Part shown: in pieces, positions 3,773-27,471 of the stretch | Layout: each line of letters opens with the position of its first letter | Numbering within the stretch: the first letter of the stretch is position 1 | From: Coriobacteriaceae bacterium | GTDB taxonomy: Bacteria; Bacillota_I; Bacilli_A; RFN20; CAG-826 | DNA length: 64,000 bases | Direction: 5' to 3' | Assembly (NCBI GenBank): GCA_963612925.1 | Contig: CAVDXG010000004.1 | Coordinates: forward strand, 1,084-65,083 | The notes under the pieces: generated by a model | Seen by the model: only the letters and a program-made list of their open reading frames with translations | Databases searched by the model: none | What the model was told of the DNA's origin: nothing | Program-made: the position numbers and the translations under genes

Positions 3773-3785
3773 AGTCCTTCCTTGG

Positions 3786-3821
3786 GAGCTTCATAGGATT
3801 TACTCTTATGGAGCTCTTTTT
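3786..3821 (+). terminator. Rho-independent terminator after serA, shared hairpin between convergent serA and arcC
   Basis: A 13-bp stem (GAGCTTCATAGGA / TCTTATGGAGCTC, two G-U pairs) and 5-nt loop, followed by TTTTT. Confidence 0.75.
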
Positions 3822-3825
3822 AAAT

Positions 3826-4740
3826 TTAGCGAATTATTGTGCCTTCTTTTAATTCAAAGGCTAGATTTGCCTTCTCTAAAGAAGAAATGACCGCGACTTT
3901 ATTCTGGCTACTTTCTAAAAATTTAACGCAAGCGTTAACTTTTGGATACATGCTACCTTTGGCAAAATAGTCAGTATTAAGATAGTCTTTCATCTCGCTT
4001 AAAGTTACATTTGTTAATTTCTTTTGTGTTGGTTTATTAAAATCGATGTAGACATTACTAACGGCAGTAAGAATCATTAAGACATCGGCGTTTACAAGTT
4101 CTGCTACTTTCGCAGATGCATAATCTTTATCGATGACCGCGGCCACGCCGAGAAGTTTATTATCTTCTAAAATAACGGGAATTCCGCCTCCGCCGGCGCA
4201 GATGACGATATCACCTTTTTCAACTAAGGTTTTGATGCTTTCTTTTTCGATGACATCGATTGGAAGAGGACTTGCTACTACTCGGCGATAGCCTCTACCA
4301 GCATCTTCTTTCATCGTATAACCTTTTTCTTTGGCGATTTTTTCGGCTTCTTCTTTGCTATAGAAGGAACCAATTGGCTTAGTTGGATTTTTAAATAATG
4401 GATCATCTTTATCGACTAATACTTGGCTAACAAGTGTGACGACATTTCTTTTCAAGCCTTCTTCTTTCAAGGCGTTATCAATGGCGTTTTGAATGTGGTA
4501 GCCAATATAACCTTCGCTCATCGCTCCGCATTCCGGAAATGGCATATCTGGAGATGAAGTAGATTCTGTAAAAGCTAGATTAATCATTCCTACTTGTGGT
4601 CCATTTCCATGGACGATGATGACTTCGTGACCTAATTTGATGAGGTGGACAATGGATTTAGCTACACCAATTAACAATTCTTTTTGTTCGATAGGATTTT
4701 TTCCTAAGGCGTTCCCGCCTAGTGAAACAACATAACGCAT
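3826..4740 (-). CDS. arcC: Carbamate kinase
   Basis: 304 aa. The N-terminus MRYVVSLGGNALG, plus HGNGPQVG and the GGGGIPV motif, are diagnostic of carbamate kinase. Confidence 0.95.
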   Translation of the reverse strand: MRYVVSLGGNALGKNPIEQKELLIGVAKSIVHLIKLGHEVIIVHGNGPQVGMINLAFTESTSSPDMPFPECGAMSEGYIGYHIQNAIDNALKEEGLKRNVVTLVSQVLVDKDDPLFKNPTKPIGSFYSKEEAEKIAKEKGYTMKEDAGRGYRRVVASPLPIDVIEKESIKTLVEKGDIVICAGGGGIPVILEDNKLLGVAAVIDKDYASAKVAELVNADVLMILTAVSNVYIDFNKPTQKKLTNVTLSEMKDYLNTDYFAKGSMYPKVNACVKFLESSQNKVAVISSLEKANLAFELKEGTIIR

Positions 4741-4892
4741 ATAAGTATTGCTCCTTTAAAATTATTTATATTATAGCCAATATTGTCTCTTATTTTTTAA
4801 TTTCCTTGGCAAAGCTTGGTTTTTTAAAAGCAAAATATTGTTTTTCTATTTAAAGCGTTTTCAAAATTCAAGGTTAATTTTAGCGCGTACAC

Positions 4893-4921
4893 TTGCATGC
4901 ATGTAAGCGGTTTAGTAAAAT
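4893..4921 (+). promoter_or_regulatory. Predicted sigma-A promoter of the 15-gene operon (TTGCAT, 17 nt, TAAAAT), overlapped by a 16-bp near-palindrome
   Basis: -35 TTGCAT at 4893-4898 and -10 TAAAAT at 4916-4921. Palindrome CTTGCATG/CATGTAAG at 4892-4907. Confidence 0.45.
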
Positions 4922-4941
4922 AATTCAGTAGAGTTTAATTG

Positions 4942-5493
4942 ATGATTACAGGCATTATTCTAGCTGGTGGAAAATCGACGCGTTTCGGGGTAAATAAATT
5001 ACTTCTCACCGTTTTTGATTTACCTTTAATCAAGCAAACTATTAAAAGCGTGGAAAACATTGTCGATAAAATTGTGATTGTCACTGGTAGATATCATGAC
5101 GATTTATCCGAAGCCTTAAAAGGTTATGATGTTGCCTATAATCTAGACTATGAAAAAGGAATGTTTTCATCAGTGCTAACTGGTGTAAGAAAAGCTGAAG
5201 GAGATTTTCTCATCCTTCCTGGAGATTGCCCTTTTGTTAAAGCTGATACTTTTAAGAAAATATTGGATTCATCGGGATTAATACGCGTTCCAACCTACAA
5301 TGGAAAGCATGGTCATCCCCTCTATTTTGATAAATCGCTAAAAGAGGAATTATTGAAAGAAGACATTTCTTCATCCTTAAAAGCTTTTCGCGATAGAGTT
5401 GGTTTTACTGAAGTCGATGTCGATGATAAAAATGTCTTAAATGATATTGATACAATTGAAGATTATCTAGATTTACTACAAGCGAGGAAATGA
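4942..5493 (+). CDS. mocA: MobA-like NTP transferase; molybdenum cofactor cytidylyltransferase (MocA/YgfJ-like)
   Basis: The N-terminus ITGIILAGGKSTRFG and the LPGDCPF motif fit this family, as does the position next to Mo-hydroxylase genes. An alternative TTG start lies at 4939. Confidence 0.85.
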   Translation: MITGIILAGGKSTRFGVNKLLLTVFDLPLIKQTIKSVENIVDKIVIVTGRYHDDLSEALKGYDVAYNLDYEKGMFSSVLTGVRKAEGDFLILPGDCPFVKADTFKKILDSSGLIRVPTYNGKHGHPLYFDKSLKEELLKEDISSSLKAFRDRVGFTEVDVDDKNVLNDIDTIEDYLDLLQARK

Positions 5494-6281
5494 AGATGAA
5501 AGTTAAAAATTATGTTCGCGTAAAAAGCTTAGAGGAAGCTCACGCTTTATATTGCGCTAGTCCGCTTAATAAAATTTTAGGAGGTGGACTTTGGCTTAAA
5601 AAAGGTAACGCTTCCATCGATACTTTAATCGATTTATCTTTGCTCGGCTTAGATAAGATTGAAGAGGAAGATAACTATATCAAAGTGGGTGCATTAGTGA
5701 GCCAAAGACAATTTGAAACTAGTCCACTTATCAAAGAAGTTTTCACAGGTATGCTATCTGAGGCAACTTCTCAAATCATGGGGCCAGCTTTTCGAGAATG
5801 TGCCACGATCGGAGGCTCAATCATGGGAAAATTTGGTTTCTCGGATTTATTAACTGCCCTTTTAGCTACAGATGCTAGATTAGTTTTCTATCCATATAAA
5901 GAAATTTCGTTAGAAGAATTTCTAAATTCAGCTGCGATGAATAAAGATATTCTCACTCATGTTTTAATTCGTAAATGTCATCGCCGTTCTTATTTTAAGA
6001 AAGTGTGTTTGACTGCTTTAGATTATCCGATTGTGAATGTTGCGATCACTCATTGCATTCGCCATGACCAATATAGTATCGCTGTTGGCTCAAGAGCAGG
6101 CGTAGCCACTCTAGCTAAAGATGTGATGGATTTAGTTAATAATGGCGAAAAAGATTTTGCTAAAGCAAGTGAAGAAGTTAGTAAGCTTAAATTCACCGAT
6201 AACTTATCTGCGAAAGCGGATTATCGAGAACATTTAGCAAAAATATATGTTCGCCGCGGACTTGAGGAGGTAAATAAATAA
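5490..6281 (+). CDS. Mo-hydroxylase FAD-binding subunit (CoxM/YgfM-like), set 1
   Basis: 263 aa with a CO-dehydrogenase-flavoprotein-type FAD-binding domain (ILGGGLWL, ATIGGSI). ATGA overlap with mocA. Confidence 0.85.
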   Translation: MKMKVKNYVRVKSLEEAHALYCASPLNKILGGGLWLKKGNASIDTLIDLSLLGLDKIEEEDNYIKVGALVSQRQFETSPLIKEVFTGMLSEATSQIMGPAFRECATIGGSIMGKFGFSDLLTALLATDARLVFYPYKEISLEEFLNSAAMNKDILTHVLIRKCHRRSYFKKVCLTALDYPIVNVAITHCIRHDQYSIAVGSRAGVATLAKDVMDLVNNGEKDFAKASEEVSKLKFTDNLSAKADYREHLAKIYVRRGLEEVNK

Positions 6282-6736
6282 TGTTATTGAATTTTAAATT
6301 AAATGGTTTAGATAGAGCTGTGGATGTTAAACCTAATGAATACCTTCTTGATACTCTTAAGAGAATCGGCATTGAATCGCTTAAAAAAGGATGCGATGGC
6401 TCTTCCTGCGGAGCATGCACTATTTTAGTTAATGGTAAGCCTGCCTTATCTTGTTCGATTCTATCTTTACAAGTGGAAGGAAAAGAGGTTACCACCGTTG
6501 AGGGCATTCAAGAAGAAGCGAGCAAAATCGCTGAATGCTTTGCTTTAGAAGGCGCCGATCAATGCGGTTATTGTAATGCTTCTTTTGCTTTAACAATTTT
6601 CGCTTTATCAAAAGAGCTAAATAATCCAACTGATTTAGAAATTAAAAAATATTTAGTAGGCAATATTTGTCGATGCACTGGCTATTATGCTCAACTTAAA
6701 GCTGTTAAAAGATATTTAGGGGGTCTAAATAAATGA
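6281..6736 (+). CDS. Mo-hydroxylase [2Fe-2S] subunit, set 1
   Basis: 151 aa with the cysteine clusters CDGSSCGACTILV and QCGYC...CRCTGY, typical of the XDH-family small subunit. Confidence 0.9.
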   Translation: MLLNFKLNGLDRAVDVKPNEYLLDTLKRIGIESLKKGCDGSSCGACTILVNGKPALSCSILSLQVEGKEVTTVEGIQEEASKIAECFALEGADQCGYCNASFALTIFALSKELNNPTDLEIKKYLVGNICRCTGYYAQLKAVKRYLGGLNK

Positions 6737-9054
6737 AAAAGAAATTCAAAGTAGTCAACAATTTAACCCCTTCTCTAGATGGAAAAGGCCTTATGATGGG
6801 TCGGCCATTTTATACCGATGATTTAGCAGAGAAAAACTCACTTATCATCAAGATTTTAAGAAGCCCACATGCTTTTGCTCACATCAAAAATATAGATACG
6901 ACTGAAGCTGAAAAACTCCCAGGTGTAGAATGCGTTTTAACTCATAAAAATGTCCCACATGTATCCTATTCTCGGGCTGGACAAGGTTATCCTGAACCTT
7001 CTCCTCATGATAAATTCATCTTTGATGAATATGTCCGTTATGTTGGCGATGAAGTCGCCGCGGTGGCCGCAATAAATGAAGAAATAGCTTTAGAAGCTTT
7101 AAAACTCATCAAGGTTGAATATGAAATCTTAGAGCCAGTTTTAGATTTTGAAAAAGCTTATAAGAATAAATCTGTTATTCATCCTGAGGACGGCATAAAT
7201 GAGATGTTCCCAATTGGCTTTGATCCTAAAAACAATGTGGCGGCCTCTTATGAAATGCATGTCGGCGATGTCGATAAAGAATTTGAAAAATGTGATTATG
7301 TCGTTGAAGAAGTTTTCTATTCACAAGCCCAAGCCCACGCCATGCTCGAGCCTCATGCATGTAACGCTAGACTTGATGTCAGAAATCGCTTAGTGATTTA
7401 TTCAACTACTCAAACGCCATTCCATATGCGTCGAATCATGGCTAAAACTTTAGGCTTACCAATTGAAATGATTCGCTTTATTAAACCGCGTGTCGGCGGT
7501 GGCTTTGGAGGAAAACAAGCTTTCCATGGCGAAATGTTTGCAGCATTAGTAACTTTAAGAACGAAAAAACCTTCCAAGTGCGTCTACACTCGTGAAGAAG
7601 TATTTGGCTCAACTTATACTCGCCACCCGATGAGAATCACCATGAAAATCGGGGCTACAAAAGATGGCAAAATTCAAGTTATCGATTGCCATTCTTTAAG
7701 CGATACTGGAGCTTATGGTGAACATTCCTTAACTGTTTTTATGATTGTTGGTAGTAAAGTACTACCTTTATATAACAAAGTTAAAGCTGTTCGTTATGGC
7801 GGACTGGTAGTTTATACAAACCATGTTTCCGCTGGGGCATTTAGAGGCTATGGAGCGATTCAAGGAAATTTTGCATTAGAGTCAACGATTGATATTCTAG
7901 CTGAAAAGATGGGCGTTGACCCAGTGAAGCTAAGAGAAGATAATTCGATGAAAGAAAAAGAAACTTCCCCAATTTTTGAAATCATGGGTGAAGGAACTAA
8001 AGGCACTCCGATGATTATGGAAAGTTGCAAGCTCCCATATTGCATTAAGCGCGGAAAAGATCTCATCAATTGGGATGAGAAATATCCTTGTAAGCAAGTC
8101 GGACCTCACACAATTAGATCTGTTGGTATGGCGATTGCTATGCAAGGAAGTGGCATTCCATTCCTTGATATGGGAAGTTGCTCAATTAAATTAAATGATG
8201 GTGGCTCATTCATGGTCACTGTTGGAGCGACTGATATCGGGCAAGGAAGCGACACCGCCATTGCTCAAATTGTGGCGGAAGAGTTACAAACTAGCATCGA
8301 TAAAGTGCTTGTTTATTCTTCCGATACCGACTTAACACCTTATGACTGCGGAGCCTATGCTTCATCTACTACTTATGTAAGTGGAAATGCCGCATATAAA
8401 GCAGCCTGCAAGATGAAAGAACGCCTATTAGAAGAAGCTGCTTCTTTCTTAGAAGTTAAGGTCGATACAGTTAAATTTGATGGTAAAGAATTCACTTCTG
8501 GCGATAAGAAAGTTAGTCTTGATGAATTGTCCACTCGTCGACTTTATAACACTGACACTCATCAAATAGCGGTAGTCGAAAGCTATCACGGAAAAGTTTC
8601 TCCACCTCCTTTTATGGCGGGCTTTGCTGAAATTGAAATCGACACCGAAACATATGAATATAAAGTTTTAAATTATGTAAGCGTTGTCGACTGTGGAACC
8701 ACGATTAACCCGGGACTTGCTAAAGGACAAGTGGAAGGTGGAATTATCCAAGGTTTAGGCATGGCCTCTTATGAAGAAGTTAAATATTCGCCTAAAGGAA
8801 AATTGTTATCAAATACATTTGACACATATCACGTTCCAACTTGTATGGAAGTGAATAAATTGACGACTGAATTTGCTGATTCTTATGAAATAAGCGGTCC
8901 GTTTGGAGCAAAATCGGTTGGTGAGATTGGAATTGATACTCCTCCAGCCGTCATTGATAACGCCATTTATAATGCACTTGGAGTAAGACTACATTCATTA
9001 CCGATTACTCCTGAAAAGATTTTTGAGGCAATGAAAGAAAAGAATTCGAAATGA
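6733..9054 (+). CDS. Mo-hydroxylase molybdopterin-binding large subunit, set 1 (XdhD/aldehyde-oxidoreductase-like)
   Basis: 773 aa with motifs GGGFGGKQ, FRGYGAIQ and a C-terminal AKSVGEIG (catalytic Glu). Confidence 0.9.
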   Translation: MKKKFKVVNNLTPSLDGKGLMMGRPFYTDDLAEKNSLIIKILRSPHAFAHIKNIDTTEAEKLPGVECVLTHKNVPHVSYSRAGQGYPEPSPHDKFIFDEYVRYVGDEVAAVAAINEEIALEALKLIKVEYEILEPVLDFEKAYKNKSVIHPEDGINEMFPIGFDPKNNVAASYEMHVGDVDKEFEKCDYVVEEVFYSQAQAHAMLEPHACNARLDVRNRLVIYSTTQTPFHMRRIMAKTLGLPIEMIRFIKPRVGGGFGGKQAFHGEMFAALVTLRTKKPSKCVYTREEVFGSTYTRHPMRITMKIGATKDGKIQVIDCHSLSDTGAYGEHSLTVFMIVGSKVLPLYNKVKAVRYGGLVVYTNHVSAGAFRGYGAIQGNFALESTIDILAEKMGVDPVKLREDNSMKEKETSPIFEIMGEGTKGTPMIMESCKLPYCIKRGKDLINWDEKYPCKQVGPHTIRSVGMAIAMQGSGIPFLDMGSCSIKLNDGGSFMVTVGATDIGQGSDTAIAQIVAEELQTSIDKVLVYSSDTDLTPYDCGAYASSTTYVSGNAAYKAACKMKERLLEEAASFLEVKVDTVKFDGKEFTSGDKKVSLDELSTRRLYNTDTHQIAVVESYHGKVSPPPFMAGFAEIEIDTETYEYKVLNYVSVVDCGTTINPGLAKGQVEGGIIQGLGMASYEEVKYSPKGKLLSNTFDTYHVPTCMEVNKLTTEFADSYEISGPFGAKSVGEIGIDTPPAVIDNAIYNALGVRLHSLPITPEKIFEAMKEKNSK

Positions 9055-10364
9055 AAATTGATAAACAACTAATCAATGGTTTAGCTTTTATTTCCGGAGT
9101 TTGGGAAAAGAAAAATATCGCGATAAGCGGAGAAAAGATTGCTTATATTGGCGATGAAGTTTTCCCTGAAGGCGAAATTATCGATTGTAAAGGATTAAAA
9201 ATCCTTCCTGGGCTTATCGACCCGCATGTTCATTTTGAACTCAACTGTGGAAAGTTAACTTCCATTGATGATTTTTATTTTGGAAGCGTATCTGCCGCCT
9301 ATGGAGGAGTGACTACCATTGTTGATTTCCTCGATCCAAGTAGAAACGCCGATGAACTTCGCGAGTCCTATTATGAACGAGCTTTACTAGCCAAGAAGAG
9401 TTTAGTTGATTATCACTTTCACGCCTGCATAAAGATGCCAAATGGCGATTTAGAAGAATATGTGAAGACTACTAAAGAGCTTGGTATGAGAACAATTAAA
9501 TTGTTTACCACTTATAGCGACACCGGGCGAAGAACATATGATAAAGACATCATTGAATTATTAAAGTTGAGTCAAAAATATGATGTTTTGATACTTGCTC
9601 ATATCGAAGCGGATGATAAGATTGTTATCAAAAACGAATATACGTATAAGGATTTATGTGCCTCTAGACCATCATATGCGGAAACTTTAGAAGCCTTAAA
9701 ATTAGCTTCATATGTTAAAGAATACGGCGGTTATTTATATATGGTTCATTGCTCAAGTGGTCAAACTCTTCATGATTTAAAAGAGCAATATGGTGATTTA
9801 ATAAATAAACACCTATTCATCGAATCTTGTCCTCAATATTTCATTTTCAATAACTCCGTTTTGGATAAAGAAAATGGACAATTATTTACTTTTGCTCCTC
9901 CTTTAAGAAGTGAGAGAGAGCGACAACTACTTGTTGCGAATTTTGATGATATTAATACAATTGGCACCGATCACTGCGCCTTTAGTAAAGCTGATAAGAA
10001 TCACCCTACTCTTATTGACTTCCCACTTGGAGTTGGAGGAATTGAATATTCTTTCACTACAATGTATCGAAGATTCGGGGATAAAGTTATCGCAAAGATG
10101 AGCGAAAACGTGGCAAAAATTGAAGATTTTCCGACTAAAGGCAGTTTAAAAGTTGGATTAGATGCTGATATTTCCATCTTTAAAGAAGATGATAATTATT
10201 TCATTAATAACACTAATCACGGGAAATGCGATTATTCAATCTATGAAGGTATCTTAGCTGATGGCGAATTTATTCATACGCTTGTTAGAGGCGAGTTTGT
10301 TTTAAAGAATCGAGAAATAGTTCCTCACAAAGGAAAAGAAATAATCTGTGGAGTGACAAAATGA
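9051..10364 (+). CDS. hyuA: Cyclic amidohydrolase, D-hydantoinase/dihydropyrimidinase family (HyuA/YgeZ-like)
   Basis: 437 aa with the metal motif PGLIDPHVHF and a candidate carboxylated Lys in TIKLFT. ATGA overlaps on both sides. Confidence 0.85.
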   Translation: MKIDKQLINGLAFISGVWEKKNIAISGEKIAYIGDEVFPEGEIIDCKGLKILPGLIDPHVHFELNCGKLTSIDDFYFGSVSAAYGGVTTIVDFLDPSRNADELRESYYERALLAKKSLVDYHFHACIKMPNGDLEEYVKTTKELGMRTIKLFTTYSDTGRRTYDKDIIELLKLSQKYDVLILAHIEADDKIVIKNEYTYKDLCASRPSYAETLEALKLASYVKEYGGYLYMVHCSSGQTLHDLKEQYGDLINKHLFIESCPQYFIFNNSVLDKENGQLFTFAPPLRSERERQLLVANFDDINTIGTDHCAFSKADKNHPTLIDFPLGVGGIEYSFTTMYRRFGDKVIAKMSENVAKIEDFPTKGSLKVGLDADISIFKEDDNYFINNTNHGKCDYSIYEGILADGEFIHTLVRGEFVLKNREIVPHKGKEIICGVTK

Positions 10365-11659
10365 AAGCTTTAATCAATGTAAGAATTTATGACTATATTA
10401 ACTATATCGAAAATGGTTATGTCATTTTTGATAAAGAGGTTGTTAAAGTCGGCGCGATGAAAGATTTTAACGATGAAGGATATTCCGTTATAGATGGAAA
10501 AGGTTCTTTACTTCTTCCAAATTTTGTCTGCGCACATTCTCACATCTATTCTATCTTTGCTCGCGGTCTTTCCTTGCCATTCAATCCACATAATTTCTAT
10601 GAAATACTCGAACAAATGTGGTGGAAATTAGATGCAAAATTAACGAATGAATTGACCTATTATAGCGGCATTGCTGCCTCTAGCGAATTTCTCTTAAACG
10701 GGGTTAGCACAGTCGTTGACCATCACGCTTCAGGCGAAATAATTAATTCCTTAAACGCTTTAAAAAAGAGCGTGGTCAATGTAGCTGGATTAAGAGGAAT
10801 ATTCTGCTTTGAAACTAGCGATAGATATCAAGTTAAAGATTGCATCAGAGAAAATAAACGCTTTGCTTTAAAAAATCATGATAGTCATTGCTCTGGCTTA
10901 TTTGGTATGCACGCCTCGATGAGCTTATCTAATAAAACCTTAAAAATGGTTAAAAGAAATCTAGGTGAGATTCCCCTTCATGTCCATGTCGCAGAAAGCG
11001 AGATGGATGAAATTGATTCGATGGATAAATATTCAACATCTATCATTGAACGATTTGAAAAATATGGGTTGCTTAGCAAAGACTCTTTGCTCGTTCATGG
11101 AGTCGCTTTATCGGATAAAGAATTAGATATCATTAAAGCTCATGATTGTTTAATGGTGGTTAACACCACGAGCAATATGAACAACGCTGTCGGTTTACCG
11201 AATGTAAAAGCCTATTTAGATAAAGGCATTAAAGTGATGGTCGGAAACGATGGACTTAATTCGAATATGGCTAGCGAATTTATGAATGTTTATTACACTT
11301 CCCATTTAAGAAATGAATCTCCAACTCAGTTATCACTAAACGAGGTTAGAGAAATGATTTTAAATAGCTATGAATATGTCTCAAATAGATTGAATATCAA
11401 ACTAGGCCGAATCGAAAAAGGTTACTGCGCGGACTTTATGTTAACGCCATACAAGAATTTTACTCGCATTGATAATTCTAATGCTTTTGGACATGTTTTC
11501 TTCGGTTTATTCCCATCTTTTAAGCCAAGCGATGTTTTTATCGATGGTAAGAAAGTTGTGAAAAATTATAAATTGGTGAGAATTAAATTAATTAACGAAT
11601 TAAATAAAGCAAATGCTTATTCAGATAAATTATGGAAGAGCCTTAAGGAGGAAAACTAA
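10361..11659 (+). CDS. ssnA: Putative aminohydrolase SsnA (chlorohydrolase/deaminase family)
   Basis: 432 aa with the amidohydrolase HxH motif (CAHSHIYS). Length and context match SsnA of the E. coli ygf/yge locus. Confidence 0.8.
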   Translation: MKALINVRIYDYINYIENGYVIFDKEVVKVGAMKDFNDEGYSVIDGKGSLLLPNFVCAHSHIYSIFARGLSLPFNPHNFYEILEQMWWKLDAKLTNELTYYSGIAASSEFLLNGVSTVVDHHASGEIINSLNALKKSVVNVAGLRGIFCFETSDRYQVKDCIRENKRFALKNHDSHCSGLFGMHASMSLSNKTLKMVKRNLGEIPLHVHVAESEMDEIDSMDKYSTSIIERFEKYGLLSKDSLLVHGVALSDKELDIIKAHDCLMVVNTTSNMNNAVGLPNVKAYLDKGIKVMVGNDGLNSNMASEFMNVYYTSHLRNESPTQLSLNEVREMILNSYEYVSNRLNIKLGRIEKGYCADFMLTPYKNFTRIDNSNAFGHVFFGLFPSFKPSDVFIDGKKVVKNYKLVRIKLINELNKANAYSDKLWKSLKEEN

Positions 11660-11663
11660 ACAT

Positions 11664-12761: not shown

Positions 12762-12763
12762 GC

Positions 12764-14875: not shown

Positions 14876-15344
14876 ATTCAATTTAAATAATGTTGAAATG
14901 GAAGTTGATGTCGACCCAAGTCGAAGATTGATTGATTTTCTTCGTGAGGATATGCACTTAACTGGAACCAAAGAAGGCTGCGGCGAAGGAAGCTGCGGAG
15001 CATGTGTCGTTTTACTTGATGGCTATTCCGTAAATTCATGCCTCATACCGATGGCTAATGTTATGAATCACTCAATTATCACCATTGAAGAATACAAAAA
15101 GAGTGAACGTTTCAATATTTTATATACCTGTTTTAGTGAAGAAGGCGGTTCACAATGTGGATTTTGCACACCGGGAATGATTATTGCAGCCGAATCACTT
15201 CTTTCACATAACCCTCATCCGAGCGAAGAGGAAATTCGAAAAGCGATGTCCGGGAATTTATGCCGTTGCACTGGCTATCAAGCCATTGTTAATGCCGTTA
15301 AATTAGCGAGCAAGATTGGAGATAAAGCATGGGAGAAAAAATAA
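14862..15344 (+). CDS. Mo-hydroxylase [2Fe-2S] subunit, set 2
   Basis: 160 aa with CGEGSCGACVV and QCGFCTPG...CRCTGY. Confidence 0.9.
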   Translation: MAKIKFNLNNVEMEVDVDPSRRLIDFLREDMHLTGTKEGCGEGSCGACVVLLDGYSVNSCLIPMANVMNHSIITIEEYKKSERFNILYTCFSEEGGSQCGFCTPGMIIAAESLLSHNPHPSEEEIRKAMSGNLCRCTGYQAIVNAVKLASKIGDKAWEKK

Positions 15345-16186
15345 TAGCAAATTCACTTAATGAAGCTCTTATTGCTTTAGATAGTCATAATTGCACCATC
15401 GTTGCTGGTGGAAGCGATATTATGCTACAAAAACGCAATGTTGCTGGCGAATTGCCTAAATTTTCAGGCGATGTTCTCTTTATTTCAAACTTAAAAGAAT
15501 TGCATTATGAAGTGCTTGAAGATGATGGCGTTCATATCGGTGCGACAATGACTTTGGAGGAAATTTTAGACAATGAATTCACTCCTAAAGTTTTAAAAGA
15601 TTGTATCAGTGAACTTGCGAGCGCCAACATTCGTCACTTTGCTACTCTAGCTGGAAACATTGCTAATGCCTCTCCAGCTGGCGACACCATCGTCGTGGAT
15701 GTGCTTTTAGATGCGACATTGAAGTTAACTTCCATTAATGGAAGTCGATTTGTAAAAGCTGCTGATTTTGTTAAAGGCGTTCGAAAAATTGATTTACAAA
15801 AGAATGAATTAATCGAAGAAATTATTTTTCCTAAATATGATTTTGATGAACTTGTTTTCTTCAAAGTTGGCTCTAGAAAAGCCGAATCTATCTCAAAGGT
15901 TTCCTTCGCCGGAGCTTATATGCTTGAAAATGGAATCATAAAAGATATTCGTCTTTCTTATGGCTCAGTCTTTATTAAAGCAATAAGAAGTTATGCTCTT
16001 GAAGAAGAACTTAAAGGCTTATCGATTAAAGAATTAGAGAATAGAGTTGAAGAATATGTTGATAAATATGGTGAATTTATTTCTCCAATTGATGATCAAA
16101 GATCAAATAGATTTTATCGAAAAGAGGTAGCGAAAAATATCACGAGAATGTTTTTAAATAAGGTAATTGAAGGAGGCAATAGATGA
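15329..16186 (+). CDS. Mo-hydroxylase FAD-binding subunit, set 2
   Basis: 285 aa with an FAD-binding PCMH-type domain (IVAGGSDIM, ATLAGNIANASPAGD). Confidence 0.85.
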   Translation: MGEKIIANSLNEALIALDSHNCTIVAGGSDIMLQKRNVAGELPKFSGDVLFISNLKELHYEVLEDDGVHIGATMTLEEILDNEFTPKVLKDCISELASANIRHFATLAGNIANASPAGDTIVVDVLLDATLKLTSINGSRFVKAADFVKGVRKIDLQKNELIEEIIFPKYDFDELVFFKVGSRKAESISKVSFAGAYMLENGIIKDIRLSYGSVFIKAIRSYALEEELKGLSIKELENRVEEYVDKYGEFISPIDDQRSNRFYRKEVAKNITRMFLNKVIEGGNR

Positions 16187-17427
16187 ATTATATCAAAGGG
16201 TATCGTTGTACGATATGCCACAAGTTTTTTCGTCCTGATGAGGTCGATTTAACTTGCCCTGTATGTGGCGAAAAAGGAATCCTCGATATCGAATACGATT
16301 ACGATGAATTAAAGAAAATTCTTACTAAAGATTACTTTAAGAATAACTCTAATTATTCGATGTGGCGTTATTATCCAATCATGGGAATCGAAAAGGATAA
16401 TATCGATAAAATGCTAAGAGTTGGCTGGACTCCTCTATATGAAGCTTACAATTTAGAAAAAGTATTTAATCTAAAGAAACTTTATATAAAAGATGATGGC
16501 CTTAATCCTAGCGGTTCTAGTAAAGATCGCGCTTCCGGAGTGGCGGTTTTAAAAGCTATTGAAGCTGGTGCGAAAACTATTGCTTGTTCATCAACCGGCA
16601 ATGCGGCTAGCTCTTGTGCTTGTCAAGCTGCCAGAATGGGACTTCACGCCGTTATCTTTGTGCCGAAAAGAGCACCTATTGGTAAAGTGACACAAATTGC
16701 TTTATATGGCGCTACTCTTATCTGCGTTGACGGCGATTATAAAGCAGCTTTCTCACTGTCGAAACAAGCTATTGAAAAATATGGTTGGTATAACCGCAAC
16801 GCGGCAATTAATCCATTCATGATTGAAGGTAAGAAAACTGTAGCGATGGAAATCGCTGAACAGCTCGATTTTAAAGTCACCGATTGGGTAGCTGTAAGCG
16901 TTGGCGATGGTTGCACAGTTGGAGGCGTCTATAAAGGCTTTTTAGAATTCTATAAGTTAGGTTTAATCGATAGAATTCCTAAGATTTTAGGCGTGCAGAG
17001 CAAAGGCTGCGAACCTTTTGTAGTCGCTAGTAAAACTGGCGAGCCTTTAAAAGAATGCGATGAAAACACCATTGCCGATTCTATCGCAGTGGGAATACCT
17101 CGCAATCCTATAAAAGCTTTAAATGCGATTAGCTTATCTCACGGCGCGTGGATTTCAGTAAGCGACGATGATATCATTAAAGCACAAGCTTTATTAGGTA
17201 AAAGCGAAGGCATATTTGGTGAGCCTGCAGGGGTGGCAGCAATTGCTGGAATAAAAGAAGCAATTAAAGAAGGCATCATCAAAAATAGTGAAAGTGTAAC
17301 AATGATTGTAACGGGCAATGGACTTAAAGATCCTAAAAATGCCCAAAAAGCTATCACCCAACCTAAATTAATGAAACCAAATCTAGAAGAATTGGATAAA
17401 TTTTTGAAAGAAAAAGGAGCAATTTAA
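16183..17427 (+). CDS. Fold-type II PLP enzyme, threonine-synthase-like, with an N-terminal Zn-ribbon
   Basis: 414 aa. N-terminal CTIC...CPVC, the PLP-lysine motif NPSGSSKDR, and glycine-rich SVGDGCTVGG. Confidence 0.8.
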   Translation: MNYIKGYRCTICHKFFRPDEVDLTCPVCGEKGILDIEYDYDELKKILTKDYFKNNSNYSMWRYYPIMGIEKDNIDKMLRVGWTPLYEAYNLEKVFNLKKLYIKDDGLNPSGSSKDRASGVAVLKAIEAGAKTIACSSTGNAASSCACQAARMGLHAVIFVPKRAPIGKVTQIALYGATLICVDGDYKAAFSLSKQAIEKYGWYNRNAAINPFMIEGKKTVAMEIAEQLDFKVTDWVAVSVGDGCTVGGVYKGFLEFYKLGLIDRIPKILGVQSKGCEPFVVASKTGEPLKECDENTIADSIAVGIPRNPIKALNAISLSHGAWISVSDDDIIKAQALLGKSEGIFGEPAGVAAIAGIKEAIKEGIIKNSESVTMIVTGNGLKDPKNAQKAITQPKLMKPNLEELDKFLKEKGAI

Positions 17428-17428
17428 C

Positions 17429-18799
17429 ATGTCAAAAATTCCATTTGGACCGACCTATGATGAAATGCTAAATCCAGCACATCAAGATCCAAAAACCAGA
17501 GCAGCAGCTCTAAAAGCTCTCAAAGAAAATGAGCTTGATCCAATTAACTTGTTCAACATCACTTGGAAAAATGAGCACGATCAAGTTAATAAGATAGTTC
17601 TACCGAAAGAACTAACCGGTGTCGAGGCGAACATTGTCGTTTTACTTGGCAAATATTTCCCATCAGGTTCACATAAAGTTGGACCAGCCTATTCGACGCT
17701 TATGGAAGGCTGTGTCGATGGGGAAATTATTCCAGGAAAACATACCATTTTAGGACCTTCAACAGGTAACTTTGGTATCGGTGTTTCCTACATCACTAAT
17801 TTAATGAAATATGATGCGATCGTTATCATGCCTGACAACATGAGCAAGGAAAGATATGAACGCATCTCAAAATATGGAGCGAAATTAGATTTAACTCCAG
17901 GTAGCGAATCTGATGTTATTCTTACCCTTGAAAGAACATACGAACTTAAAAAAGATCCGAAGAATCGCACACTTGCCCAATTTGAACTTCTTCCAAACTA
18001 TCGTTTCCATCGCCATGTGACTGGAAATAGCTGTGTTGAAGCAGTTAAAGGCATTGGCAATTCTCGAATTGCCTGCTTCTGCAGCGCGCCTGGAAGTGCT
18101 GGCACATTAGCCGCCGGCGATCAAATCAAAGTCGCTTTCCCAGAATGTAAAGTTGTCGCCTTAGAACCGCATGAATGTTCAACTCTCACTAACGGAGGTT
18201 TAGGACAACACCGCATCGAAGGTATTGGCGATAAGATGATCACTTTAATTCACAATGTTTTAACCACTGATTTTATCACTCAAATCATCGATGAAGATTG
18301 CGTCCGCGGATTAGCAGTAATCCATGAAGGAACTGATGTTCTTGTTAAACATGGAATTGATAAAAAAGTTGCTGAATCGATGGTCAATTTATTCGGTGTA
18401 TCCGGCATTTGTAACATCTTAGGAGCAATTAAGATGGCTAAATATCTTAAACTTGGACCTGACGATAACGTCGTCACCATTGCCACCGATAGCTTTGATA
18501 GATATCCATCAGTTATGGAAGATTTACATAAACGCGAACTCGAAGTCACTCCAAATGTTTTAGAGAGATGGTTTGAAGATGTTTTCGAAGGTGCAGATAC
18601 TCGTTATATTCTCGATACTCGTGGCGTAGAAGCCAAAGAAAAACTCTTCAAACAAAAAGAACGCGATTGGCTTAAATTCGGTTACTCCCAAGAATATCTT
18701 GATTCGATGAGAAAGCCAGAATTCTGGGAAGATGAATACAACAAAATTCATGCCTACGATAAGAAAATTAAAGACATGCGTGGAAAGGAAGTTAAATAA
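17429..18799 (+). CDS. Fold-type II PLP enzyme, long cysteine-synthase/CBS-like family
   Basis: 456 aa with the motifs SGSHKVGPA (PLP Lys), PSTGNFGIG and SAPGSAGT. Confidence 0.75.
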
Positions 18800-20022
18800 T
18801 GAAAGTTTCATTTGAAGAAGTACTTAAAAAAGCTGAATCATATAAAGCTGACATGACAAAATTCCTTCGCGATATGATCGCTATCCCTAGCGAATCATGC
18901 GATGAGAAGAAAGTCGTTCTTCGCATTAAAGAAGAAATGGAAAAAGTTGGTTTTGATAAAGTCGAAATCGATGGAATGGGCAATATTTTAGGTTATGTTG
19001 GTCATGGTAAGCACTTAATTGCTATGGATGCCCATATCGATACTGTCGGAATTGGCGAAATCAAAAACTGGAAATTTGATCCATATAAAGGCTTTGAAGA
19101 TGATGTTTATATTGGCGGACGTGGAGCTAGCGACCAAGAAGGTGGCATGGCTTCGATGGTTTACGCCGCGAAGATTATCAAAGATTTACATTTAGAAGAT
19201 GATTACACCTTATTAATTACCGGAACTGTCCAAGAAGAAGACTGCGATGGCTTGTGCTGGAAATACATCATCGAGGAAGACAAAATCCGACCGGAATTTG
19301 TCGTTTCGACTGAACCAACTAGCTGCCGAATTTATCGTGGGCATCGCGGAAGAATGGAAATCAAAGTCAATGTCCGTGGCATCTCTTGCCATGGTAGCGC
19401 CCCTGAACGTGGAGATAACGCCATCTACAAGATGGGACCTATCATTATGGATATCAAAAAACTCAATGAAGAAGGACTTGCCTACGATCCATTTATCGGA
19501 AAAGGTACAGTTACCATCTCGCAAATTTTCCATAAATCTCCATCTAGATGTGCAGTTGCAGATGGCTGTTGGATTAGTCTTGATCGACGCCTAACAGTTG
19601 GTGAAAATGATAAAACTTCCATTGCTGAAATTGAAAATTTACCTTCTGTTAAAGCAGCGAAAGCAGAAGTTAGCATGTATGAATATTCTCGTCCATCTTA
19701 TACCGGACTTGTCTATCCAATTGAATGCTATTTCCCAACCTGGGTCATTCCAGAAGAATCGATTTATTGTCAATCGATGAAGGAAGGCTACCAAAAACTC
19801 TTTAAAAAAGATCCTGTCATCGATAAATGGACCTTCTCAACCAATGGTGTTTCCATCATGGGAAGATATCATATACCTTGCATTGGCTTTGGCCCTGGAG
19901 ATGAGGAAGAAGCTCACGCTCCAAACGAAAAAACACGAAAACAAGATTTGGTAATATGTGCAGCAATGTATGCAGTCTTACCTAATATCTATTTAGAACA
20001 TTTAGAAAAAGGAGAAAAGTAA
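18799..20022 (+). CDS. ygeY: YgeY-family M20 metallo-amidohydrolase ('selenium metabolism-linked hydrolase')
   Basis: 407 aa with M20 motifs [15 protein letters not shown] and EEDCDG. TAATG overlap with the upstream gene. Confidence 0.85.
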
Positions 20023-20026
20023 AAAA

Positions 20027-21040
20027 ATGAAAAAAATAGAACCTCGTTTTGCTGGTCGTCATCTCATCACTTTGGAAGATTTTTCTAAAGAAGAAATCGA
20101 CTACATGCTTCAAGTATCGCATGACTTAAAAGATGCTTTCTACCGCAATGAAGAAACTCAATGGTTAGTTGGAAAAACTGGTTTCTTGATGTTCTTTGAA
20201 CAATCAACAAGAACAAGAAATTCATTTGAATCTGGCATGGCTCAACTTGGAGGGCACGCCACATTCTTAGACACTTCTATGATGCAAATTGCTCACGGAG
20301 AATCCGCGAAGGATACCGCGGTTATTCTTTCTTCCTTTGGTCACATGATTGCCTGTAGATATTGCAACTGGGGATTAGGCAATAAATATATTCGTGAAAT
20401 GGCTAAATGGTCGACAGTTCCTGTCATCAATTTGCAATGCGATTTATTCCATCCTATGCAAGCTTTAGCGGATTTAATGACCATTGAAGATGAATTCAAT
20501 AAAGAAGTTAAGCATTTAAAAGTTTCTGTTATTTGGGCGATGGCAACTACTCATAAAAAACCAATCTCAGTTCCAGTTAGCCAAGTGCTTTTATTCCCTC
20601 GCTATGGAATGGATGTCACCCTTGCCTATCCTGAAGGCTATGATTTACCAGATTGGGTCATTGAAAAAGCGAGAAAGAACGCTGCTGAAAATGGCGGTTC
20701 ATTAACTATTACTCATGATATGGACGCCGCTTATCGCGATGCCGATGTCGTATTCCCTAAAAACTGGGGTTCATGGGTTACAAATCAATCCACGACCGTA
20801 GTCGATGATGCTTTGTTGGCTTTAAAATCTTGGAAGTGCACACCAGAAAAGATGGCACTTGCTAAACCTCATTGCCGTTATATGCACGCTCTTCCAGCTG
20901 ACAGAGTCAACGAAGTTGTTGATGAAGTTATCGACGGGCCAAATTCCGTAATTTATCAAGAAGCTGAAAATAGAATTCATACCGCGAAAGCAGTCATGGC
21001 TCTATTTGTTCACGATAAAGTCGCTAGCGATAGACGCTAA
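20027..21040 (+). CDS. ygeW: YgeW-like carbamoyltransferase (OTC/ATC superfamily)
   Basis: 337 aa with STRTR, QIAHGES, NLQCDLFHPMQALADL, KPISVP...GMDVTLAYPEGYDL and HALPA. These blocks line up with my recollection of E. coli YgeW, although this protein is shorter. Confidence 0.8.
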   Translation: MKKIEPRFAGRHLITLEDFSKEEIDYMLQVSHDLKDAFYRNEETQWLVGKTGFLMFFEQSTRTRNSFESGMAQLGGHATFLDTSMMQIAHGESAKDTAVILSSFGHMIACRYCNWGLGNKYIREMAKWSTVPVINLQCDLFHPMQALADLMTIEDEFNKEVKHLKVSVIWAMATTHKKPISVPVSQVLLFPRYGMDVTLAYPEGYDLPDWVIEKARKNAAENGGSLTITHDMDAAYRDADVVFPKNWGSWVTNQSTTVVDDALLALKSWKCTPEKMALAKPHCRYMHALPADRVNEVVDEVIDGPNSVIYQEAENRIHTAKAVMALFVHDKVASDRR

Positions 21041-21057
21041 GACAAATTGAATTAATT

Positions 21058-21090
21058 AAGCAAGTTCATTATGGACTTGCTTTTAATTTT
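21058..21090 (+). terminator. Rho-independent terminator closing the 15-gene operon
   Basis: Stem AAGCAAGTTC / GGACTTGCTT with a 5-nt loop, followed by a T-rich tract. Confidence 0.7.
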
Positions 21091-21115
21091 AGTAAGCGCG
21101 TGTATAATTAAGGGC

Positions 21116-22348
21116 GTGAAAAGTTTAAGAAATCTCTATCGAATCGGAAGAGGACCTTCCTCTTCTCACACCATTGGTCCTGAACGAGCATCCCAATTTT
21201 TAAAGAACAAATATAGCGATGCCACATCAATTGATGTCATTTTATATGGTTCACTTGCTTTCACCGGAAAAGGTCACTTAACAGATAAAGTTATAATCGA
21301 TACTTTTTCGCCTATTCCAACGAAAGTAGTTTTTGATTATAAAAGTAAGGTAGACTTTCCTAATACCTTTGATGTGATTATCCACTTCTTAGACAAAGAA
21401 GATGTTAAAAAAAGAGTCCTTTCATTAGGCGGAGGAGCAATATCGATTGAAGGTGAAGTAGAAGAAAATGAAGCTGAAGTTTATCCAGAAAAGAACTTTG
21501 CTGAAATTAAAGAATTTTGTCAAAAAAACAATTTTACCTTGCCTCAATATGTTGAACATTATGAAGGCAAAGACATCTGGCAGTTTCTAAAAAGCATCTG
21601 GGATCAAATGTGCAAAACCATTGATGCTGGAATGCATAATAAAGGTGAATTGCCAGGAAATTTGCACATTCATCGCCGGGCTAATAGCTTTTTACTTCCT
21701 TCACATTTAAAGGAATCTAGCTTCTCTAGATCTAATAGAATGATTGATGCGTATGCTTTTGCAACGAACGAGGAAAACGCTTCTGGCGGAGTGGTTGTAA
21801 CTGCCCCGACATGTGGAAGCTCTGGAACTCTTCCAGCTGTCTTGATGCATCTTATTGACCGTTATGAATATAATGACGATAAAATCGTTAAAGCTTTAGC
21901 GGTCGCCGGAGTAATTGGCAATGTTGTTAAAGCTAATGGTTCTATCTCAGGGGCTGAAGCAGGTTGCCAAGCTGAAATTGGCACTGCTTGCTCGATGGCC
22001 GCGGCGGCGACATCATATCTAAAAGGTTTTAATCTCGATCAAATCGAATATGCTGCAGAAGCTGCAATGGAGCATTCTTTAGGGCTCACTTGTGATCCAG
22101 TGGAAGGTTATGTTCAAATTCCTTGCATCGAGCGTAACGCCATTGCTGCAACAAAAGCATTAGCCTCAACCTATCTAGCTGAATATGCATCTTCATCTCA
22201 TCGAGTTAGTTTCGATACCATCGTACAAACAATGGTGGAAACTGGCCGAGATATGAAAAAGAAATATCGCGAAACTTCTAAAGGTGGTTTGGCGAAAGAT
22301 TATTTTTTAAACAATAAAAAGAGGAGGACTCGTAAAGATGGAAATTAA
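21116..22348 (+). CDS. sdaA: L-serine ammonia-lyase (Fe-S dependent, single-chain type)
   Basis: RIGRGPSSSHTIGP near the N-terminus, plus the CGSSGT and GAEAGCQAEIGTA motifs. I placed the start at GTG 21116, giving (M)KSLRNLYRIGRGPSSSHT, which parallels the E. coli SdaA N-terminus. The track ATG at 21071 lies in the loop of the upstream terminator. Confidence 0.85.
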   Translation: MKSLRNLYRIGRGPSSSHTIGPERASQFLKNKYSDATSIDVILYGSLAFTGKGHLTDKVIIDTFSPIPTKVVFDYKSKVDFPNTFDVIIHFLDKEDVKKRVLSLGGGAISIEGEVEENEAEVYPEKNFAEIKEFCQKNNFTLPQYVEHYEGKDIWQFLKSIWDQMCKTIDAGMHNKGELPGNLHIHRRANSFLLPSHLKESSFSRSNRMIDAYAFATNEENASGGVVVTAPTCGSSGTLPAVLMHLIDRYEYNDDKIVKALAVAGVIGNVVKANGSISGAEAGCQAEIGTACSMAAAATSYLKGFNLDQIEYAAEAAMEHSLGLTCDPVEGYVQIPCIERNAIAATKALASTYLAEYASSSHRVSFDTIVQTMVETGRDMKKKYRETSKGGLAKDYFLNNKKRRTRKDGN

Positions 22349-27458: not shown

Positions 27459-27471
27459 GTATCCTCATTTC

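Follow-up and report, generated by a model that had tools for sequence, protein, structure and literature searches.

The reductive urate, or 2,8-dioxopurine, pathway of anaerobic purine breakdown was reconstituted in vitro in 2025 in Escherichia coli, Clostridium sporogenes and Clostridioides difficile (bioRxiv 10.1101/2025.04.24.650524 and 10.1101/2025.05.19.654654). In the published scheme, urate is converted to 2,8-dioxopurine by XdhD (DOPDH, for 2,8-dioxopurine dehydrogenase) and dearomatised by YgfK or UacX; SsnA and HyuA then open the rings to give 2,3-diureidopropionate; at the end, one of the two ureido groups is turned into carbamoyl phosphate by YgeW and on into ATP by YqeA, YgeY hydrolyses the second, and YgeX converts 2,3-diaminopropionate to pyruvate. 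The two preprints disagree on the product of YgeW, which is albizziin according to Li et al. (2025) and 3-amino-2-ureidopropanoate according to Liu et al. (2025), a difference that bears on whether a ureido-alanine with a free α-amine exists. Here we analyse a gene cluster of this type at positions 3826–21040 of a 64,000-nucleotide stretch of DNA (hereafter the window) from a Coriobacteriaceae bacterium placed by GTDB in the Bacillota_I (assembly GCA_963612925.1, contig CAVDXG010000004.1, positions 1,084–65,083 of the forward strand).

We consider it likely that this cluster encodes a complete variant of the pathway, in which a short YgeW-like carbamoyltransferase occupies the place of YgeW and two enzymes dependent on pyridoxal phosphate (PLP), here named PLP1 and PLP2, occupy that of YgeX. 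The analysis establishes the family or architecture to which each gene belongs, the conserved gene order and the pattern of replacements across genomes; all substrates, and the activities of PLP1, PLP2 and the short transferase, are predicted. The core of a first-pass annotation is supported: it had read the region as an anaerobic urate or purine locus of the ygeW-ygeY-hyuA-ssnA-xdh type that gains ATP through a carbamoyltransferase and carbamate kinase, and the order of chemistry that it proposed closely matches the pathway reconstituted in 2025. For the canonical enzymes, its remark that several steps were biochemically unassigned no longer holds. The pathway and the swap of its reductase are already known; the short transferase and the presence of PLP1 and PLP2 where YgeX is missing appear to be new. 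Neither is mentioned by Liu et al. (2025), by Li et al. (2025) or in a 2013 study (PMC4016543), and a full-text literature search returned no paper that describes either of them.

Enzymes of the purine cluster

The predicted proteins were scored against NCBIfam models, judged by their curated equivalog cut-offs, and compared with the proteins of E. coli MG1655 (L086). Apart from the carbamate kinase gene arcC, all genes of the cluster lie on the + strand, and their order is conserved across many independent assemblies, far beyond chance. The cluster encodes two complete molybdenum (Mo) hydroxylases of the xanthine dehydrogenase (XDH) family. The Mo subunit of hydroxylase 1 (6733–9054) is of the XdhD, or 2,8-dioxopurine dehydrogenase, type: it shares 37% identity with E. 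coli XdhD, scores 496 bits against XdhD versus 359 bits against XdhA, and contains in alignment the XdhD-specific insertion with the equivalent of Glu606, a residue singled out as urate-orienting by Li et al. (2025). Its best PDB match is 4-hydroxybenzoyl-CoA reductase, a reductive dehydroxylase. The FAD subunit (5490–6281) is YgfM-like (27% identity and 54 bits, ahead of XdhB) and has weak NCBIfam matches to FAD subunits of the XDH family, and the 2×[2Fe–2S] subunit (6281–6736) scores 118–137 bits with XdhC/pucE-type models. A hydroxylase of the XdhD/DOPDH type, as expected of a urate cluster, is thus present, and its predicted role is that of a urate dehydroxylase: with its separate Fe–S subunit, hydroxylase 1 (5490–9054) would strip urate of its C6 oxygen and so yield 2,8-dioxopurine.

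Hydroxylase 2 (12764–16186) resembles ordinary xanthine dehydrogenases. Its Mo subunit (12764–14875) finds its best PDB matches in bovine xanthine dehydrogenase/oxidase (203 bits) and its top E. coli match in XdhA (26% identity), and carries the motifs GGAFGGKE and AAFRGFGSPQ, which we take to be the positions of bovine Glu802 and Arg880, typical of xanthine-specific enzymes. The 2×[2Fe–2S] subunit (14862–15344) scores 160–174 bits with pucE and XdhC models, and the XdhB-like FAD subunit (15329–16186) scores 133–138 bits with XdhB models and matches XdhB best in E. coli. Hydroxylase 2 would oxidise hypoxanthine and xanthine to urate; the substrates and the direction assigned to each Mo enzyme are predictions. 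Having two hydroxylases fits the known pathway because both conversions, from xanthine to urate and from urate to 2,8-dioxopurine, are needed. The first-pass annotation listed two complete Mo-hydroxylases, and such a pair is canonical (a xanthine dehydrogenase plus a urate dehydroxylase). The first gene of the + strand run (4939–5493) encodes a MocA/MobA-like nucleotidyltransferase that may serve in maturation of the Mo cofactor by cytidylylation; it scores 118.1 with TIGR03310 (cut-off 186) and 127.6 with the DVU_1551 NTP-transferase family, and is 28% identical to E. coli MocA.

The reductase (11664–12761) combines PF01180, a flavin domain like those of dihydroorotate dehydrogenase (DHODH) and PydA, with a C-terminal 2×[4Fe–4S] region, which is the UacX architecture described for C. 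difficile by Li et al. (2025). Its open reading frame (ORF) is listed from 11613; we moved the likely start to the ATG at 11664 because an AAGGAGG site precedes it and because the resulting protein of 365 aa has a homologue of 365 aa in a related locus (L001). A reductase of the YgfK/UacX class is present, the UacX assignment being made by architecture only, and the enzyme would dearomatise the 2,8-dioxopurine ring. The stand-alone PreA-like reductase of the first-pass annotation does exist, but it is not a novelty: replacement of YgfK by a UacX-type enzyme has already been reported in C. difficile, and the 2013 study had described the reductase as 'dehydrogenase X1', syntenic with hyuA, ygeW, ygeY, ssnA, xdh and yqeA (PMC4016543).

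Two amidohydrolases are encoded directly upstream of the reductase. The SsnA-like protein (10361–11659) scores 346.2 with NF005540 (cut-off 444) and 316 with TIGR03314 (cut-off 455.5), the next family reaching just 134.8, more than 200 bits lower; its identity to E. coli SsnA is 31.5%, its gene is syntenic in relatives, and an exact-sequence look-up of this protein returned no record. The HyuA-like cyclic amidohydrolase (9051–10364) is divergent in sequence (D-hydantoinase TIGR02033, 220.8 against a cut-off of 393.25; 29% identity to E. coli HyuA), and its slot before SsnA is kept in relatives. Together they would open both rings to give 2,3-diureidopropionate, with the SsnA-like enzyme acting on the reduced ring and the HyuA-like enzyme as a hydantoinase type. 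A reductive pyrimidine (Pyd) pathway was considered for these genes and rejected on the scores for PreA (NF006183, 115.4 versus 335) and dihydropyrimidinase (220.8 versus 393).

YgeY and carbamate kinase had been named in the first-pass annotation, and the profile search bears out both names. The M20 hydrolase YgeY (18799–20022) scores 692.9 with TIGR03526 (cut-off 321.5) and is 69.8% identical to E. coli YgeY, and the carbamate kinase (3826–4740, − strand) scores 382.2 with TIGR00746 (cut-off 358.25) and is 52.6% identical to E. coli YqeA. These are the only two to pass their cut-offs among carbamate kinase, YgeY, the SsnA-, HyuA- and MocA-like proteins and the carbamoyltransferase.

The carbamoyltransferase (20027–21040, 337 aa) was assigned from motifs after models for both ornithine carbamoyltransferase (OTC) and YgeW had failed. 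It scores 262.5 with the OTC model TIGR00658 (cut-off 280.85), 182 with the YgeW model TIGR03316 (cut-off 500) and 190 with NF005538 (cut-off 453), so the name YgeW given in the first-pass annotation has to be replaced by that of a short YgeW-like form. The protein comparison gives 35.5% identity to MG1655 YgeW, and identities in alignment are about equal to Pyrococcus OTC (40.7%) and E. coli YgeW (39.7%). With E. coli YgeW (PDB 3q98) it has in common the motifs NLQCD, PKxW and WxCT and the insertion W-A-x5-KPxSVP. The ornithine motif DxxxSMG of OTC is missing, with FPKNWGSW at the site of DVWASMG, and HALP stands for HCLP. These motifs are kept in 56 orthologues. A true OTC, and with it an arginine deiminase pathway, was rejected on the score below the TIGR00658 cut-off and the missing DxxxSMG and HCLP motifs; no arginine deiminase was seen among the annotated ORFs.

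Judged by its sequence, the protein is a short relative of YgeW, probably isofunctional with it, that belongs to neither the OTC nor the YgeW equivalog. In Desulfitobacterium and Desulfosporosinus metagenome-assembled genomes (MAGs; loci L045 and L051), the order YgeY-short carbamoyltransferase-carbamate kinase is found in clusters that are otherwise canonical (YgfK, YgeX, HyuA and urate permease), and in farther loci the carbamate kinase gene lies immediately 3′ of that for the short transferase. In the proposed flow, the short transferase would phosphorolyse one ureido group to carbamoyl phosphate, from which carbamate kinase would make ATP, and YgeY would hydrolyse the other to leave 2,3-diaminopropionate.

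PLP1 and PLP2 in place of YgeX

The last step would then be catalysed by PLP2 instead of YgeX, through β-elimination via aminoacrylate to pyruvate and ammonia, with PLP1 as a partner; conversion of diaminopropionate to pyruvate is the most likely function of the pair. A tblastn search with the E. coli proteins found no homologue of YgeX, YgfK, YqeB or YqeC in the 64-kb window, as the first-pass annotation had stated. When the window proteins were tested for YgeX, only PLP1 matched (23–26% identity, 46–57 bits), and PLP1 scores 56.3 with the diaminopropionate ammonia-lyase model NF006058 (cut-off 276). The two PLP enzymes had been called unrelated; both are PF00291 proteins, a fold family that they share with YgeX.

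PLP1 (16183–17427) is a ThrC-like enzyme with a PF00291 domain (248 bits) and an N-terminal CxxC...CxxC zinc ribbon, and it scores 208.6 with the threonine synthase model TIGR00260 (thrC, cut-off 167.1). Compared with three solved ThrC proteins, NPxR[IL]EGQKT is changed to NPx[LM][VI]EGKKT with Leu or Met for Arg, STGNT to STGNA, and VGNAGN to VGDGC. All three substitutions (Arg, Thr and VGNAGN) hold in 68 of 68 orthologues. The substituted residues are presumably the phosphate-binding residues seen in Thermus thermophilus ThrC structures, and since they are replaced PLP1 is unlikely to use O-phosphohomoserine. We rejected a genuine threonine synthase on this altered Arg/Thr/Asn site, even though the model is passed, and propose PLP1 as a candidate helper in diaminopropionate processing. 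Systematic misannotation of such proteins as ThrC is likely, given that PLP1 passes the thrC model with its phosphate site gone.

PLP2 (17429–18799, 456 aa) is a CysK-superfamily enzyme of an uncurated family. Its score of 133 with the cysK model TIGR01139, against a cut-off of 350.95, led us to reject a CysK/CysM cysteine synthase. Only the fold is shared with CysK, from which PLP2 differs by about 55 extra residues at the N terminus and about 90 at the C terminus; at least 90% of 80 orthologues keep the PLP lysine (GSHKVG) together with the STGN and glycine-rich loops. In sequence, PLP2 scores 91.5 bits against Fn1055 and 103.8 bits against the best cysteine synthase. An AlphaFold2 model built from a shallow alignment has a local confidence (pLDDT) of 68 and a predicted template-modelling score (pTM) of 0.75, with region 77–190 disordered, and its Foldseek matches are generic (CysK, β-cyanoalanine synthase and Fn1055, TM about 0.38). 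No informative fusion was found in longer PLP2-like representatives; a second PALP stretch in one of them and an ABC ATPase in another are probably gene-calling artefacts.

The PLP2 family is small and distinct, with 117 representatives at E ≤ 1e-30 in a search of a representative library. When each GTDB species was represented by one genome and these were scanned with a seven-sequence PLP2 alignment as query (a 14-sequence version was too diverse), at least 593 relatives emerged. We then examined the neighbourhoods of the best 80 of these at least 593 loci (66–93% identical), up to 10 kb on each side, and scored their ORFs by blastp against the window proteins and the E. coli reference proteins. 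Carriers among the best 80 include rumen and gut MAGs named 'Bacilli/Erysipelotrichaceae', Izemoplasmatales, Acholeplasmataceae, Mycoplasmatota strain zrk2 and Liberiplasma polymorphum, and also Moorella, Desulfitobacterium, Desulfosporosinus, Negativicutes and Acidobacteriota. At least one other urate-cluster gene lies near PLP2 in 73 of the 80 loci. PLP1 is the most frequent neighbour (72 loci, immediately upstream in 61), followed by YgeY (62), an Mo subunit (58), the short carbamoyltransferase (56) and UacX (51); carbamate kinase is near PLP2 in 18, canonical YgeW in three, and YgfK and YgeX in two each. Three loci (L032, L036 and L039) have the order YgeW-PLP2-YqeA-PLP1-YgeY, in which PLP2 sits at the position of E. 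coli ygeX. Across the loci, which carbamoyltransferase is present does not depend on which PLP enzyme accompanies it, the pattern expected of modular replacements.

PLP2 genes without other cluster genes still lie near purine-related ones: a PucR-family regulator fragment in locus L029 (L029:11385–11819) and, in locus L048, an IMP dehydrogenase gene (L048:11482–13002). A RidA (L-PSP) gene adjoins the PLP genes in L045, L051 and L038.

A very abundant sister family of about 485 aa shares 34–42% identity with PLP2, and its members are about 70% identical to one another across Cloacimonadota, Ignavibacteria, Bacteroidota, Myxococcota, KSB1 and the PVC group. We re-scored seven of its contexts (from L087–L094, flanks of 6–9 kb) against the reference proteins. 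In six of the seven, which represent six groups of phylum rank (Ignavibacteriae, Deltaproteobacteria, Cloacimonadales, Thermanaerobaculia, a PVC-group contig and one further contig of 6 Mb), the PLP2-like gene follows immediately after a canonical YgeW gene (57–66% identity to E. coli); the seventh, a Bacteroidota locus (L092), has the order PLP2-like-YgeY-short carbamoyltransferase. No YgeX orthologue is present in these seven contexts. The Thermanaerobaculia-type MAG (L093) has MocA, M20, YgfK, two amidohydrolases, YgeW, the PLP2-like protein, carbamate kinase, an XdhD-like fusion, YqeB and YqeC, and the PLP2-like protein is the only PLP enzyme in this otherwise complete cluster. These sister-family contexts, that of L093 included, argue most strongly for PLP2-type enzymes taking the role that YgeX has in E. 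coli.

Sister loci are often compact, consisting of genes for PLP1-like and HyuA-like proteins, an XDH Mo subunit, an Fe–S subunit, YgeW and the PLP2-like protein. Within the flank retrieved, such compact clusters lack SsnA, a reductase and YgeY, and they may represent a shorter or different pathway for N-heterocycles. In the Cloacimonadales and Bacteroidota MAGs (L091 and L092), genes of mobile elements or toxin–antitoxin systems (for a Y1 transposase, RHH/ParE and MNT/HepT proteins) are inserted inside urate-type clusters (L091:5122–5694 and 11433–11919; L092:2230–2881).

Several observations weigh against a diaminopropionate-to-pyruvate role for PLP2 in a complete urate pathway. (i) PLP2 and a true YgeX coexist in L045 (PLP1-PLP2-RidA-YgeX) and L051 (PLP2-RidA-YgeX); this coexistence, with RidA in between, disfavours a simple one-for-one replacement of YgeX, and in L051 YgeX is present and PLP1 is missing. 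(ii) The need for two PLP enzymes is unexplained. (iii) Genes for serine hydroxymethyltransferase (SHMT) adjoin PLP1/PLP2 in three Clostridia-type loci (L049, L051 and L053). (iv) YgeY is missing from the flanks retrieved for four sister contexts (L087, L088, L090 and L094). (v) The poor PLP2 model (pLDDT 68) gives no structural support for a substrate. (vi) The SsnA-, HyuA- and MocA-like proteins and the carbamoyltransferase all score below equivalog cut-offs, and their specificity could differ from that of the E. coli enzymes. (vii) Neither a purine permease nor a deaminase was found in the 64-kb window, and SelD, YqeB and YqeC, which occur in every urate-degrading strain surveyed by Liu et al. 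(2025), were not found there either. For SelD, the first-pass claim of absence holds for the ORFs scanned against Pfam or NCBIfam, a set that leaves out rpoC, fusA, tuf and some short ORFs.

The YgeX coexistence, the SHMT and sdaA neighbours and the YgeY-less sister flanks are the reasons for which we keep three alternatives in view, namely action on ureido-alanine, formation of serine, and PLP1 as the YgeX counterpart. On a broader scale, it is conceivable, though we would not expect it, that PLP2, its sister family and PLP1 form an unrecognised core of anaerobic purine breakdown that is partnered with YgeW-type carbamoyltransferases, replaces YgeX in most phyla outside Enterobacteria and some Clostridia, and may catalyse another reaction, such as β-elimination of ureido-alanine or formation of serine. 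If PLP2 does catalyse another reaction, most anaerobes of the gut and the environment would depart from the E. coli and C. sporogenes model in the lower half of the pathway.

One such reaction would start from 3-ureido-alanine (albizziin), whose β-ureido group PLP2 would eliminate or replace to give pyruvate or serine plus urea, in a lower pathway unlike that of E. coli. CysK-type enzymes eliminate β-leaving groups via aminoacrylate, which is established enzymology. The carbamoyltransferase is the most constant neighbour of PLP2-type genes, standing immediately upstream in six of the seven sister contexts, and the YgeY-less flanks point the same way, as does albizziin being the YgeW product given by Li et al. 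(2025). However, YgeY lies beside PLP2 in 62 of the 80 loci of the window's own subfamily, the YgeW product of Liu et al. (2025) has a blocked α-amine and would be no PLP substrate, and YgeY may fall just outside sister-locus flanks of 6–9 kb. We regard a role on albizziin as improbable.

A little less probable still is that PLP2 swaps the β-amino group of diaminopropionate for water to form serine, from which PLP1 or SdaA would make pyruvate, or SHMT glycine and a one-carbon unit. Such a route would account for the need of two enzymes, and it is in line with the SHMT neighbours, with the sdaA gene directly 3′ of the cluster here and in the closest relatives, with the serC/serA-like genes just upstream of arcC, and with Fn1055, a CysK-like enzyme that makes serine from cysteine, being among the closest sequence and structure matches of PLP2. 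Yet the sdaA adjacency is lost past the closest relatives, SHMT occurs in only three of the 80 loci, and the likeness to Fn1055 is at the family level only (91.5 bits versus 103.8 for the best cysteine synthase). A further alternative is that PLP1 rather than PLP2 is the equivalent of YgeX.

Two readings are far less probable than those above. In the first, the hydrolases, reductase and carbamoyltransferase come from ordinary reductive pyrimidine and arginine deiminase pathways whose genes happen to adjoin xanthine dehydrogenases, and PLP1 and PLP2 are threonine and cysteine synthases. The top NCBIfam names (dihydropyrimidinase, dihydroorotate dehydrogenase/PreA, OTC at 262.5 versus 280.85, and threonine synthase) would lead there, and the threonine synthase model TIGR00260 exceeds its cut-off. 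Apart from thrC, however, no such model reaches its cut-off; the carbamoyltransferase has YgeW motifs and lacks DxxxSMG and HCLP; the ThrC Arg is gone from PLP1 in 68 of 68 orthologues and PLP2 reaches 133 versus 351 on CysK; YgeY is a strong equivalog match; and the whole set co-travels with SsnA and XDH across phyla. The first-pass annotation had itself named this outcome (a true OTC, a true dihydropyrimidinase) as the one that would overturn it; we consider it largely refuted. In the second, likewise very improbable, PLP2 (and perhaps PLP1) is a maturation factor that mobilises sulphide or selenide, taken from cysteine or selenocysteine, for the labile S/Se ligand of the Mo cofactor and offsets the missing YqeB, YqeC and SelD, in keeping with the absence of YqeB/YqeC from the window, the frequent adjacency of PLP2 to an Mo subunit or YqeB/YqeC (L046, L055, L053, L070 and Acidobacteriota loci) and the ability of CysK-family enzymes such as Fn1055 to desulfhydrate cysteine, but at odds with PLP2-like genes sharing clusters with YqeB/YqeC/XdhC (L088 and L093), which speaks against replacement, with the tighter link to carbamoyltransferase and YgeY, and with our finding no conserved persulphide-carrier feature.

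Organization and genomic context of the cluster

The + strand run at 4939–21040 comprises 14 genes in the ORF list; the 15 genes counted in the first-pass annotation are reached only with arcC, which is indeed divergent from the operon. The tight packing that it described is reproduced by the ORF list, with overlaps of 4 nt (ATGA type) at 5490, 6733, 9051, 10361 and 16183 and of 1 nt at 6281 and 18799; at the remaining junctions no gap exceeds 4 nt and no overlap exceeds 16 nt. Junctions that allow translational coupling span the whole block, GC content is uniform with the flanks, and the ORFs are intact under the standard genetic code (table 11).

The 198-nt divergent region at 4741–4938, which we read directly in the sequence, is the only sizeable intergenic gap and plausibly the sole promoter space for arcC and the operon. 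The promoter put forward at 4893–4921 (TTGCAT-17-TAAAAT) is unsupported: its −35 hexamer matches three of six positions, it lies below the threshold of the scan, which did not recover it, and promoter-like sites in this region are rarer than in shuffled sequences (35 versus 58.9). Rfam searches, at gathering thresholds over the whole window and permissively over 3700–5100, returned no riboswitch and one tRNA only. At the other end, where a terminator had been placed at 21058–21090, our scan detects a + strand hairpin at 21058–21082 (11 pairs, four of them G–C), but its T-tract is poor and its loop holds the ATG of sdaA (21071). The hairpin is possibly a weak terminator or attenuator; it may be that translation of sdaA is coupled through it to termination of the purine operon, or that the sdaA start is mis-set.

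The gene that follows (21071–22348, + strand) encodes the L-serine dehydratase SdaA (TIGR00720, 362.6 against a cut-off of 345.1). The identity proposed for it stands, but its membership in the pathway is doubtful, as sdaA comes next after the cluster in no loci but those of the closest relatives (L001, L002, L006–L009, L011 and L015), L003 and farther loci having lost this adjacency. Pyruvate:ferredoxin oxidoreductase is encoded at 60616 and beyond. Just upstream of arcC is a three-gene unit (294–3772) for a DUF1015 protein, a SerC-like class-V aminotransferase and a SerA-like D-2-hydroxyacid dehydrogenase; the purine cluster is thus embedded among serine-related genes, with the SerC- and SerA-like genes upstream and sdaA and cysS downstream. 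After tuf, at 48544–50941, are two adjacent overlapping genes for RDD-family membrane proteins of 384 and 434 aa.

About 6 kb downstream of the cluster, a gene at 27457–29976 encodes an 839-aa protein with an endonuclease I domain, and the region 54800–59171 encodes an ABC transporter followed by three consecutive lipobox proteins, of which one is a solute-binding protein, one (520 aa) has a weak SNase domain and one (413 aa) is unassigned. The endonuclease I protein and the SNase-like lipoprotein suggest extracellular foraging for nucleic acids, and the nucleases of the window are in line with published descriptions of Izemoplasmatales and Hujiaoplasma as scavengers of nucleic acids.

The closest assembly is GCA_963657885.1, in which PLP2 and RpoB are each 96% identical to those of the window, and the nearest relatives of this lineage are rumen and gut MAGs. 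Loci with 66–77% PLP2 identity and the core order from HyuA to the carbamoyltransferase occur in Izemoplasmatales, Acholeplasmataceae, Mycoplasmatota and some Bacillota MAGs. The description of the genome as Mollicutes-like gains only indirect support from the related loci of Izemoplasmatales, Acholeplasmataceae and Mycoplasmatota, but the RpoB and PLP matches are named just 'MAG: Bacilli bacterium'.

Comparison with known systems

Surveys of urate degraders have used E. coli or C. sporogenes queries with criteria such as a YgeW identity of at least 63% and a YgeX identity of 50%, and other surveys count any PF00291 neighbour as YgeX. Clusters like that of the window fail two or three of these survey criteria or are mislabelled. 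The pathway is therefore probably more widespread than such surveys suggest, and what carries out its last steps has probably been missed. The two conserved PLP enzymes and the short YgeW-like transferase are the targets for characterization.

The E. coli cluster has the order ygeW-ygeX-ygeY-hyuA-yqeA ... mocA-ygfK-ssnA-ygfM-xdhD (Liu et al. 2025; Li et al. 2025). Like it, the window contains an XdhD/YgfM-type hydroxylase, SsnA-like and HyuA-like proteins, YgeY, carbamate kinase, a MocA-like gene and a second XDH set nearby. It differs in that (i) a UacX-type reductase stands for YgfK; (ii) a 337-aa YgeW-like form stands for the 396-aa knotted YgeW; (iii) ThrC-like and CysK-like PLP enzymes stand for YgeX; (iv) the Fe–S domain of XdhD is a separate subunit; and (v) YqeB/YqeC, a regulator and a permease are lacking within the window. 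The PydA/DHODH-like FMN and Fe–S reductase (UacX) in place of YgfK is shared with C. difficile (Li et al. 2025). By contrast, C. difficile uses the hydrolase UacY for YgeW plus YqeA and gains no ATP, whereas the window keeps a carbamoyltransferase and carbamate kinase; and XdhD of C. difficile has no YgfM subunit, whereas the window has a YgfM-like one.

Izemoplasmatales and Hujiaoplasma nucleasis zrk29 are wall-less, Firmicutes-derived scavengers of nucleic acids with XDH-centred purine loci. The order HyuA-SsnA-UacX-XDH-PLP1-PLP2-YgeY-carbamoyltransferase is common to the window and to Izemoplasmatales, Acholeplasmataceae and Mycoplasmatota genomes, and the papers on Izemoplasmatales and Hujiaoplasma assigned the pathway no further than xanthine dehydrogenase. 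Independent physiological evidence comes from cultured Hujiaoplasma nucleasis, in which a cluster of XDH, Fe–S and dihydropyrimidinase genes, possibly homologous to that of the window, is induced by DNA and RNA (PMC10470597). The present locus would link a purine fermentation with substrate-level gain of ATP to uncultured Bacilli with secreted nucleases.

The classical clostridial xanthinase route (Rabinowitz) likewise ferments purines anaerobically, and its first enzyme is a selenium-dependent one of the XDH type. It proceeds by a xanthine amidohydrolase through imidazoles to formiminoglycine and glycine, whereas the cluster in the window has the set typical of the reductive route (SsnA-like and HyuA-like proteins, YgeY and a carbamoyltransferase).

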